Below, in pieces: positions 29,871 through 30,620 of a stretch of DNA of 64,000 nucleotides (the stretch's first letter is position 1; each line of letters opens with the position of its first letter). The translations under genes and the position numbers were made by a program. The stretch lies in the IMG/VR virus record IMGVR_UViG_3300033074_002003; one strand, given 5' to 3'. This DNA comes from a virus. The notes below the pieces were generated by a model that was not told the origin of the DNA, did no database searches, and saw only the letters and a list, made by a program, of their open reading frames with translations.

Positions 29871-30620
29871 ATGGCGTCTTCGCTGGGAATCAATTCGTTC
29901 ACGAACGTTCTCATCATCACCGGCGCGGGCGTCTCTGCTGAGAGCGGCGTTCCCACTTTCCGTGACGCGGGCGGCTTGTGGATGGGACACAACATCGAGG
30001 ACGTTGCCTCACCCGCGGGCTTCGAGGAAAATCCCGACCTCGTGTGGAAGTTCTACAGCGAACGTCGCAAGGGCGTCATTGCGGCACGACCGAACGCTGC
30101 CCACCGGGCAATCGCTGCCCTCGAACCGATGCTCACCGACAACTTCCTCCTCGTGACGCAGAACGTCGATGACCTGCACGAAAGAGCGGGCTCGAAGAAT
30201 GTCGTGAAGCTACACGGCGACCTACTTCGCACTCGCTGTTCGAACGGGCTGTGCGACAACTTTCACTCCGCACCCTCGACGCTGATGCCGACAGTTGCAC
30301 CCGTCTGCCCGAAGTGCGGGTGTCACGAGCGACCTGACGTTGTCTGGTTCGGTGAGGGCCTACGCAACGACTCGTGCGACACTGCGTTTCGCTTCATCAA
30401 ACGCGCGCGGGACTCGATGTCGAGGTTCCTGTGCATCGTCGTCGGGACGTCGGGCGTCGTGTATCCGGCATCGTCGTACGCTGGGATTGCGAAGGCAGCG
30501 GGGGCAGAAACCGTGCTCGTGAACCTCGAGGTCACCGATCAGGTCGATGATTTCGATCGGTTCTACTGCGGGAAGGCGACGGATATTCTGCCCGGGCTCC
30601 TCGCATTCCACTCATTTTGA
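29871..30620 (+). CDS. cobB: NAD-dependent protein deacylase, Sir2 family (CobB-like)
   Basis: GAGVSAESGVPTFRD, TQNVDDLHERAG, LHG, Zn ribbon CSNGLC...CPKCG. SD GGGAGG 7 nt upstream. Confidence 0.8.
   Translation: MASSLGINSFTNVLIITGAGVSAESGVPTFRDAGGLWMGHNIEDVASPAGFEENPDLVWKFYSERRKGVIAARPNAAHRAIAALEPMLTDNFLLVTQNVDDLHERAGSKNVVKLHGDLLRTRCSNGLCDNFHSAPSTLMPTVAPVCPKCGCHERPDVVWFGEGLRNDSCDTAFRFIKRARDSMSRFLCIVVGTSGVVYPASSYAGIAKAAGAETVLVNLEVTDQVDDFDRFYCGKATDILPGLLAFHSF

Follow-up and report, generated by a model that had tools for sequence, protein, structure and literature searches.

Class III sirtuins in cells and phages

The closest described counterparts of the protein discussed here are class III sirtuins, a group that includes CobB of Escherichia coli and Salmonella and human SIRT5, a desuccinylase, demalonylase and deglutarylase. 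In SIRT5, Tyr102 and Arg105 make the enzyme specific for acyl groups that carry a negative charge (PMC4811591); PMC11814216, citing Colak et al. (2013), describes E. coli CobB as a bifunctional deacetylase/desuccinylase. This report concerns a Sir2 gene (positions 29871-30620, + strand) carried by a 64,000-nucleotide stretch of viral DNA of environmental origin, IMG/VR record IMGVR_UViG_3300033074_002003, the whole of which is referred to below as the window. Judged from its sequence and a structural model, the gene product is a full-length, stand-alone, single-domain class III sirtuin of the CobB/SIRT5 type. It is a conventional enzyme in a new phage lineage, and the one new contextual point is that throughout this lineage the Sir2 gene lies next to a gene for an MVP-like protein.

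Phage Sir2 proteins are routinely annotated (PHROG 2162) and were surveyed in 2021-2022 (PMC7824862, PMC9503650); a Sir2 homolog is present in 533 of the 50,697 GenBank phage records collected in INPHARED. For most of them, Iyer et al. (2022) proposed a role in RNA repair, on the strength of neighborhoods that contain T4-like RNA ligases, calcineurin-like phosphoesterases and kinases (PMC9503650, section 3.7.3). Viral MVP homologs were described in a 2023 preprint and bacterial ones in a 2019 preprint, neither of which mentions sirtuins, nicotinamide adenine dinucleotide (NAD) or gene neighborhoods. What, then, would a CobB-like protein encoded beside an MVP-like protein do for a phage?

A complete CobB/SIRT5-type enzyme

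The Sir2 coding sequence is open throughout and specifies 249 amino acids (aa). A longer, mechanically called open reading frame (ORF) begins upstream, at a TTG codon at 29850; the ATG at 29871 is the likelier start because a strong Shine-Dalgarno sequence, GGGAGGA (29860-29866, + strand, read from the sequence), lies 4 nucleotides (nt) before it, and public gene calls for a 94% identical homolog (P0001) also give 249 aa. The ORF call made in the initial annotation is thus upheld, and a chance reading frame is excluded by the matches to the Pfam family SIR2 (PF02146; E 7.8e-42) and to CobB in the PDB (E 1.6e-52).

PF02146 is the only Pfam family matched, at 143.7 bits against a cut-off of 24 and over the entire profile (1-180 of 180), and the five best NCBIfam models are all NAD-dependent deacylases or CobB. 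When solved structures are ranked by a sequence search of the PDB, class III enzymes come out on top: CobB is followed by Sir2-Af1 (7e-52) and SIRT5 (1e-47), and lower down by Sir2-Af2, the class U enzyme Sir2Tm (9e-30) and class I SIRT1/2 (about 1e-13). An AlphaFold2 model built from an alignment of 56 homologs has the sirtuin fold, a Rossmann domain with a small Zn/helical domain, at a mean predicted local distance difference test (pLDDT) score of 90.9 and a predicted template modeling (pTM) score of 0.89. Foldseek places it closest, among PDB entries, to CobB (6rxj; TM score 0.81/0.86), SIRT5 and Af1, with E values of 5e-26 to 1e-22 and TM scores of 0.74-0.87.

The active site is intact. 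The three motifs quoted by the initial annotation are all in place, and their conservation was assessed residue by residue in the 56-homolog alignment. The NAD-binding Rossmann and cofactor-loop motif, GAGVSAESGVPTFRD (aa 18-32; 29922-29966, + strand, like all features of the Sir2 gene given below), includes nine residues that are invariant in 56 of 56 sequences (G18, A19, G20, S22, S25, G26, T29, F30 and R31). In the second motif, TQNVDDLHERAG (aa 96-107; 30156-30191), which opens with TQNVDD at aa 96-101, the residues that contact ribose and nicotinamide (Q97, N98 and D100) are invariant as well. The catalytic histidine, H115 in KLHGDL (30213-30215), was identified by alignment to the catalytic His of CobB and Af1; it is invariant, and H115-G116 forms the HG motif, so that the loss of this residue upon careful alignment, which would have spoken against a deacylase, is not what is observed. 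The third motif, CSNGLC...CPKCGC (aa 123-128 and 146-151), supplies four putative Zn ligands of the Zn ribbon (30237-30317; C-x4-C ... C-x2-C), identified from the sequence and the alignment: C123, C146 and C149 are invariant, and C128 is conserved in at least 90% of homologs. Outside these motifs, the WFGEG β-staple (30345-30359), which binds the backbone of the acyl-lysine peptide, is likewise present, with W159, F160, G161 and E162 invariant, and so is the GTSG motif of the Rossmann domain (30444-30455; G192, T193, S194 and G195, all invariant).

The acyl pocket gives a hint of the acyl groups that may be removed. Residues A46, Y62 and R65 (30003-30068) correspond, in an ungapped alignment, to SIRT5 A86, Y102 and R105, the last two of which form the dyad for acidic (succinyl/malonyl) acyl groups; in a short-segment search, FYSERR, which contains Y62 and R65, aligns without gaps to FYHYRR of SIRT5 (3rig) and to FYNARR of CobB. 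Both residues are invariant across the family alignment, and E. coli CobB carries the same Tyr/Arg pair. The expected reaction would be the conversion of acyl-lysine and NAD+ to lysine, nicotinamide and 2'-O-acyl-ADP-ribose, and, like E. coli CobB, the enzyme would be expected to act on succinyl- and malonyl-lysine in addition to acetyl-lysine; a preference for acetyl over succinyl, or the reverse, is not readable from sequence.

On this evidence, the protein is probably an active lysine deacetylase/desuccinylase that would act on proteins of the host, the phage or both. The assignment to this enzymatic class is very likely in its own right; much less can be said for any particular set of targets. 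During infection, the enzyme would most likely strip acyl marks from host and/or phage proteins, and the initial annotation likewise suggested that the phage may reprogram host lysine acylation; CobB itself typically acts on acyl-CoA synthetases, on proteins of translation and RNA processing, and on transcription factors.

Several observations pull the other way. The NCBIfam scores stay below their curated thresholds (NF001753, 240.2 against 243; NF040867, 225.2 against 320), so that the protein is CobB-like and not an "equivalog" of CobB by the NCBI rule. The first Zn knuckle is C-x4-C where C-x2-C is usual, although a Myxococcus homolog (P0107) and phage RsoM2USA have the same spacing. Model confidence is lowest in the Zn module, with block pLDDT values of 65-84. 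No substrate can be named from sequence, and the literature search returned no experimental or biochemical study of any phage sirtuin. Finally, the neighborhood of the gene, with a CCA-adding enzyme, a metallophosphoesterase and a Rnl1-type ligase, resembles the settings in which Iyer et al. placed RNA-directed sirtuins, a point taken up below.

Is the protein a defense-type NADase?

SIR2 domains also occur in defense systems, and the initial annotation had set the protein apart from the NADase type found in ThsA and DSR. That distinction is borne out as far as sequence can tell: the class III signatures are complete, PF02146 alone is matched, the Pfam search of the protein returns no SIR2_2, and no PADLOC defense model (for defense SIR2 NADases such as ThsA, DSR1/2, SIR2-HerA and SIR2-pAgo/SPARSA, or any other) matches at E ≤ 1, where the search yields just two unrelated noise matches, BrxF (0.039) and PDC-S65 (0.18). 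No sensor or partner (SLOG, HerA, pAgo or a large DSR C-terminal region) is fused to the protein or encoded next to it, its immediate neighbors being an 86-aa ORF and the MVP-like gene. Identity with a defense system was rejected on the negative PADLOC result, and membership in the NADase clade on that result together with the retained catalytic His and the lack of a sensor partner. The window protein also differs in setting from class M sirtuins (SirTM), for which a Macro-domain partner would be expected: there is no Macro domain in any ORF scanned between 25.4 and 39.3 kb, and the SirTM-type sirtuins of Streptomyces phages are 35-38% identical to the window protein.

A phage could nevertheless turn a sirtuin into an NAD+ sink, depleting or diverting the cofactor to blunt NAD-dependent immunity, an idea that the initial annotation had also raised, or to shut down the host. 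Sirtuins do consume NAD+, and no specific tool result favors this use here. The protein resembles none of the SIR2 NADase effectors represented in PADLOC, its peptide-binding and acyl-pocket residues are intact, and phages generally restore rather than destroy NAD+ (PMC7824862). A tblastn search of the 64-kb window for the NAD-salvage genes of another MVP-bearing virus (L041, described below) found none that could offset the drain. Such a role is therefore very improbable.

Comparison with cellular sirtuins

How closely does the window protein follow its cellular models? It is about 44% identical to E. coli/Salmonella CobB (1S5P, 6RXJ) over the catalytic core (TM 0.81-0.86), shares the NAD-binding, His, Zn and Tyr/Arg residues, and is, like CobB, a stand-alone single-domain protein of similar size. 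Unlike CobB, it is phage-encoded and has no counterpart of the basic N-terminal extension found in the long CobB isoform. Two of its features recur in Myxococcota-type homologs: the first knuckle is C-x4-C, and six residues are inserted ahead of the GTSG strand. Identity to human SIRT5 is 36-39% (Foldseek), with the A86/Y102/R105 segment ungapped; SIRT5 has about 20 extra residues in its Zn/small domain. SIRT5 also carries a mitochondrial presequence. The closest non-phage proteins are CobBs of Myxococcota and other bacteria (among them P0003, P0005, P0018 and P0107), which are 47-54% identical and have the same insertions and, in some cases, the C-x4-C knuckle. Two cellular homologs whose surroundings were inspected reside in ordinary chromosomal contexts (a purC-like gene, an RNB-family RNase II/R and CRISPR genes, or a HEPN/MNT toxin-antitoxin pair), with neither MVP nor Rnl1 adjacent.

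The E. coli CobB sequence used as a reference comes from a record labeled as a phage, vB_EcoS-813R8. This homolog (43.5% identical) and that of Acinetobacter phage MD-2021a were the two top-scoring "phage" matches, and both were dropped as phage comparators once they proved to be the cobB genes of host chromosomes. The INPHARED records ON470619.1 (L011) and CAKLQF020000009.1 (L019) contain plain bacterial chromosome under a phage label: one has the gene order lolCDE-nagK-cobB-potD beside an integrase, and the other reads msbA-gcvH-cobB-putAP. Counts of phage sirtuins are inflated by such host genes.

Origin and selection

The phage has no close sequenced relative, since a megablast search of the 26-36 kb region against the 50,697 phage records returned zero matches; a single-protein scan of IMG/VR with Sir2 likewise found nothing. 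Relatives of Sir2 were gathered instead from a protein database and by exact-sequence look-ups of the contigs that encode them. The nearest homolog, 94% identical in amino acid sequence, lies on aquatic metagenome contigs of at most 128 kb with the same gene order. Contigs of 85-128 kb from the phage lineage are present in ENA PRJNA377521. At the nucleotide level, the two genes are 88.5% identical and differ by 67 synonymous and 19 non-synonymous changes, and the ratio of non-synonymous to synonymous rates (dN/dS) is 0.07; none of the 14 amino acid substitutions falls in a motif. The Sir2 gene is under strong purifying selection.

All remaining relatives are at most 54% identical and are mostly cellular CobBs, many of them labeled Myxococcota; the window protein sits within this cellular CobB radiation, at 47-54% identity. 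An ancestor of the lineage probably took the gene from that radiation, and the lineage has since kept it, under strong purifying selection, in a fixed place upstream of the MVP-like gene in a co-directional accessory block. Could it instead be a functionless passenger, a host cobB captured recently and idle during infection? Having cellular CobBs among its nearest relatives is what one would expect of such a gene. However, no cellular homolog exceeds 54% identity, dN/dS is as low as 0.07, and the gene occupies the same locus in phages that share no more than 37-62% identity in their other proteins, so that the idea is hardly credible.

Whether the lineage acquired its sirtuin once is a separate question. 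The next-closest Sir2 proteins (P0002, P0096 and P0008), which come from phage-like contigs, share 50-53% of their residues with the window protein and 60-64% with one another. In neighbor-joining (NJ) trees, these three group together in 60 of 60 bootstraps and are joined by the window protein in only 6 of 60; at such depth, the CobB radiation is star-like. A single capture by the phage lineage is plausible from synteny, while the NJ phylogeny does not show it.

Other phage sirtuins and a proposed role in RNA repair

The sirtuins that dominate numerically among phages, those of rV5-like, T5-like, PBECO4/Asteriusvirus-like and Vibrio Straboviridae phages (PHROG 2162), resemble the window protein in being phage-encoded, derived from class III and equipped with the catalytic His and FY-x-x-R. 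They are often found near an RNA ligase, phosphoesterase or Nudix gene. In contrast to the window protein, they have lost all four Zn cysteines and carry TxN in place of TQN; identity to the window protein is 26-32%. The four groups are monophyletic in 100 of 100 NJ bootstraps, with the window protein outside; Iyer et al. (2022) describe a distinct viral clade typified by the rV5, SP15/T5-like and jumbo-phage sirtuins. A PDB search with the rV5 protein gives 78 bits, against 181 for the window protein, and marks the rV5 clade as likewise derived from class III but much further diverged. Among GenBank phages, the nearest genuine sirtuins are those of a 635-kb uncultured megaphage, LR745206 (about 41-44% identical), which lacks the standard pairs of Zn cysteines in the alignment, and of the Ralstonia jumbo phage RsoM2USA (about 39-40%), which is CobB-like and retains the Zn cysteines, with the same C-x4-C knuckle. 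In the NJ tree, neither forms a specific group with the window protein, and the context differs in RsoM2USA, in which all neighbors are hypothetical and no MVP is annotated.

This split matters because the sole functional proposal published for phage sirtuins, RNA repair, concerns the divergent clade without the Zn ribbon. Applied to the window, it would have the sirtuin use NAD+ in the manner of KptA/Tpt1, removing the 2'-phosphates of broken tRNA ends, or otherwise ADP-ribosylate those ends, and so undo, together with the products of neighboring genes, the damage done by host anticodon nucleases. Those genes are indeed at hand on the same strand: (i) a calcineurin-like metallophosphoesterase (25887-26672, +; Pfam Metallophos, E 8e-14; phrog_1649) 3.2 kb upstream; (ii) a CCA-adding tRNA nucleotidyltransferase (28242-29543, +; NF009814, 294.8 bits against a cut-off of 290; Pfam PolyA_pol) 0.3 kb upstream; and (iii) a T4 Rnl1/gp63-like RNA ligase (37663-38883, +; Pfam RNA_lig_T4_1; phrog_562) 7 kb downstream, at the end of the conserved block. 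An Rnl1-ORF-Sir2 arrangement was confirmed in rV5, and Rnl1 remains in the block in two of the diverged relatives of the window phage (L020 and L122).

The company of the gene is less constant than this suggests. The metallophosphoesterase and the CCA enzyme lie upstream of Sir2 in the window and in its near relatives (L001-L006); in L020, no metallophosphoesterase was found in the 8 kb of upstream sequence examined, and the nucleotidyltransferase, only 27% identical to the CCA enzyme of the window, is separated from Sir2 by other genes, so conservation with Sir2 does not extend to the upstream repair genes. The window protein falls outside the Zn-less clade, as described above, and has kept every feature specific to an acyl-lysine peptide. 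Sir2 is also present in only 2 of 43 lineages of MVP islands, rich as these are in RNA-repair genes (see below), and the proposed RNA activity has, as far as the literature search shows, been demonstrated for no sirtuin. An RNA-repair role is therefore unlikely for the window protein, and a protein deacylase remains the better account.

A lineage-wide association with an MVP-like gene

The MVP-like gene (30690-33281, +) starts about 70 nt after the Sir2 stop codon and encodes 863 aa (Pfam MVP_shoulder, E 3e-27; Vault_3; Band_7). It is followed, after several small ORFs, by a 380-aa protein with a VWA domain (VWA380; 35440-36582, +; Pfam VWA, E 2e-5), a 298-aa ORF (orf298, + strand, between VWA380 and Rnl1, part of the conserved block) and Rnl1. 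At least four diverged phages, whose Sir2 proteins are 51-63% identical, preserve the order Sir2, MVP-like, VWA, Rnl1. On the phage-like contigs that encode P0002, P0096 and P0008, Sir2 is followed by MVP (897-906 aa), small ORFs, proteins of about 380-393 aa and about 290 aa, and Rnl1; L020, L122 and L123 show this order. In all known members of the lineage, Sir2 is directly upstream of MVP, with gaps of 69-190 nt. Between the window and L020, the identities are 51% for Sir2 and 55% for MVP, 37% for orf99, 47% for orf143 and 56% for orf124, and 62% for VWA380, 48% for orf298 and 53% for Rnl1. Sir2 has thus diverged in step with its block neighbors, which is most simply read as prolonged inheritance together within a single phage lineage.

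Does this adjacency extend beyond the lineage? The MVP-like gene has at least 100 relatives at 36-59% identity in viral and metagenome contigs (loci L007-L009 and L025-L123). A set of 102 MVP-like loci (36-55% identical) from IMG/VR and JGI metagenomes, which fall into 43 clusters at 70% identity, was surveyed over flanks of up to 10 kb on each side, with at least 1.5 kb of upstream sequence in 81 of the 102. A sirtuin profile search detected Sir2 in two of the 43 lineages, adjacent to MVP in the window lineage only, and found none in the flanks examined of the other 41. The second Sir2-bearing cluster (L031, L040 and L041) encodes, 2.3 kb downstream of MVP, a class-U-like protein with CxxC...CxxC whose identity to the window protein is 31%. 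In L041 (IMGVR_UViG_3300024268_000053), a compact cluster (6285-19043) runs in the order RNase T-like exonuclease, Rnl2-type ligase, MVP, isochorismatase/nicotinamidase-like, PRTase, YqeY, SIR2, NAMPT and NAD synthase, an arrangement repeated in L031 and L040. This is an unrelated, independent second Sir2 near MVP, embedded in NAD salvage.

The genes that surround MVP elsewhere put these two cases in proportion. A Pfam census of 110 immediate MVP neighbors in 39 other lineages recorded RNA_ligase (four times), RlaP (twice), TROVE (once) and Metallophos (twice), along with isochorismatase (twice), NAPRTase (once) and cytidylyltransferase-like domains (twice); a control set of 123 ORFs located 4-10 kb from MVP yielded Metallophos (nine times), RNA_ligase (twice), AAA_33, KTI12, PTH2, Thg1, NADAR (twice) and NAD synthase. 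An enrichment of RNA-repair and NAD genes specifically beside MVP was rejected, as the control shows the same families; the shared themes near to and away from MVP therefore reflect an island effect, not pairing. In large phages, MVP-like genes thus belong to broad accessory islands that typically combine RNA-repair genes (RNA ligases, RlaP, Metallophos, Thg1, PTH2 and TROVE) with NAD/ADP-ribose genes (NADAR, NAMPT, nicotinamidase-like and NMNAT-like). A general MVP-Sir2 coupling is likewise unsupported by the survey, in which Sir2 is an occasional island member and not a core partner.

The constancy of the pair within the window lineage still invites the thought that Sir2 is a partner of an MVP shell, a cargo or regulator of a vault-like assembly that provides local NAD+-consuming chemistry or O-acyl-ADP-ribose. 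By analogy with the eukaryotic vault, composed of MVP, PARP4, TEP1 with its TIR-like NADase, and vault RNA, the phage has an MVP-family gene linked to genes for an NAD+-consuming enzyme, a VWA protein and RNA-handling enzymes, and the VWA protein belongs to the conserved block. The VWA domain is also found in PARP4. For eukaryotic vaults, NADase, PARP and ADP-ribose binding at the MVP shoulder have been reported (10.64898/2026.05.01.722283). In its fullest form, the analogy would make the block a viral counterpart of the vault, with a sirtuin dedicated to the MVP-like shell that deacylates shell or cargo, or makes O-acyl-ADP-ribose, in connection with tRNA and RNA repair. Strict adjacency across the lineage, despite Sir2 identities of only 51-63%, fits such a partnership, as does the unrelated Sir2 that arrived independently near MVP in L031/L040/L041; on the vault reading, the two captures of different sirtuin classes, in the window lineage and in L041, would reflect such a dependence. 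Against this, Sir2 was not found within flanks of up to 10 kb on each side in 41 of 43 MVP lineages, NAD and RNA-repair genes turn up just as often at 4-10 kb from MVP, and a fixed order inside one phage lineage can be plain synteny. The likeness to eukaryotic vaults is an analogy only, limited to one lineage: the NAD enzyme is a sirtuin and not a PARP or TIR protein, and no TROVE domain or small RNA was found in the block, an Rfam scan of 24-40 kb at E ≤ 0.1 (which covers Y RNA, vault RNA and other small RNAs) being empty. A shell partnership thus appears improbable, and so does the fuller vault counterpart; the likely role of the protein is still that of a lysine deacylase.

The initial annotation had called the position of the gene, in an operon with MVP and tRNA enzymes, unusual. 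This holds in part: Sir2-MVP adjacency is new in the literature searched, and it is kept only within this phage lineage; the linkage of sirtuins to RNA ligase and phosphoesterase genes, though for a different sirtuin clade, had already been published (PMC9503650).

What makes an otherwise ordinary gene worth pursuing is that a phage lineage has long kept an unmodified CobB/SIRT5-type enzyme, so that standard acyl-peptide substrates should suffice to assay an activity that can be predicted beforehand; it is a good candidate for the first biochemical characterization of a phage sirtuin. Should it deacylate host proteins, it would provide a direct example of a virus rewriting a bacterial acetylome or succinylome, and the constant MVP-like neighbor offers a tractable bacterial-virus system in which to approach a link between MVP assemblies and NAD+ enzymes, a question lately raised for eukaryotic vaults. 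If neither holds, it would be one more auxiliary metabolic gene.

Surrounding genes and other features of the window

The window is phage-like: it has two baseplate-wedge PHROG matches, a gp55-like late sigma factor, an exonuclease, the T4 gp63/Rnl1-like ligase and an HNH endonuclease, it is rich in small ORFs, and no cellular housekeeping gene is present among the ORFs scanned. Between about 25.4 and 39.3 kb, the called genes all run in one direction with little space between them, and no terminator-like site was detected on the + strand at 25.6-33.8 kb by a scan that amounts to a weak consensus test. To speak of a Sir2 gene inside a phage operon, as the initial annotation did, is thus a fair description of a co-directional block of phage-type genes, within the limits of a weak promoter/terminator scan.

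Upstream of Sir2, three further genes share its strand. The HNH endonuclease (26707-27462, +) follows the metallophosphoesterase; a 153-aa ORF (27668-28129, +; phrog_5614) contains HCDAGHSRS, which fits the Cys-phosphatase signature HCx5R[S/T], and has weak matches to DSPc (E 0.02) and PTP-SAK (E 0.2), the latter standing for a "Swiss-army-knife" RNA-repair phosphatase, so it may be an RNA-end phosphatase that works with the CCA enzyme and Rnl1; and an 86-aa ORF (29600-29860, +), which has no family match and is 95% conserved in L001, ends 10 nt before the Sir2 ATG. A gene for a cytidine/dCMP-deaminase-family protein lies downstream of Sir2. The HNH endonuclease is 83% identical to its counterpart in L001 (6870-7592), in which the flanking genes are 93-95% identical, and a comparison of window positions 36582-37663 with L001 positions 16465-18434 reveals an extra 234-aa gene between orf298 and Rnl1 in L001 that the window lacks; the divergence of the HNH gene and the extra gene are signs of mobile-element turnover within the block.

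The stretch between MVP and Rnl1 (33326-37715, +) is made up of genes of unknown function, of which orf99, orf143, orf124, VWA380 and orf298 are conserved in L020; orf116 (33677-34027) in the same stretch has no match there. VWA380 is the only protein of this group with a Pfam domain. The constant association of the five conserved genes with MVP suggests that they encode MVP accessory proteins.

Elsewhere in the window, ARAGORN reports a tRNA-like gene on the − strand (62037-62110) as of undetermined identity and with an anticodon of two bases, "(ta)"; the call may be false, or the tRNA may be odd or degenerate. Laminin_G_3 (concanavalin-like) domains occur in three large proteins (12192-14021, +; 39282-41897, −; and 46098-49571, −), one of which is fused to a GDSL lipase/acylhydrolase; these are probably tail-fiber or depolymerase proteins, and the 12-14 kb region is unusually rich in G and C (0.69). 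Two adjoining group-1 glycosyltransferase genes (57218-59745, −, and 56123-57028, −) lie beside the gene for the gp55-like late sigma factor.

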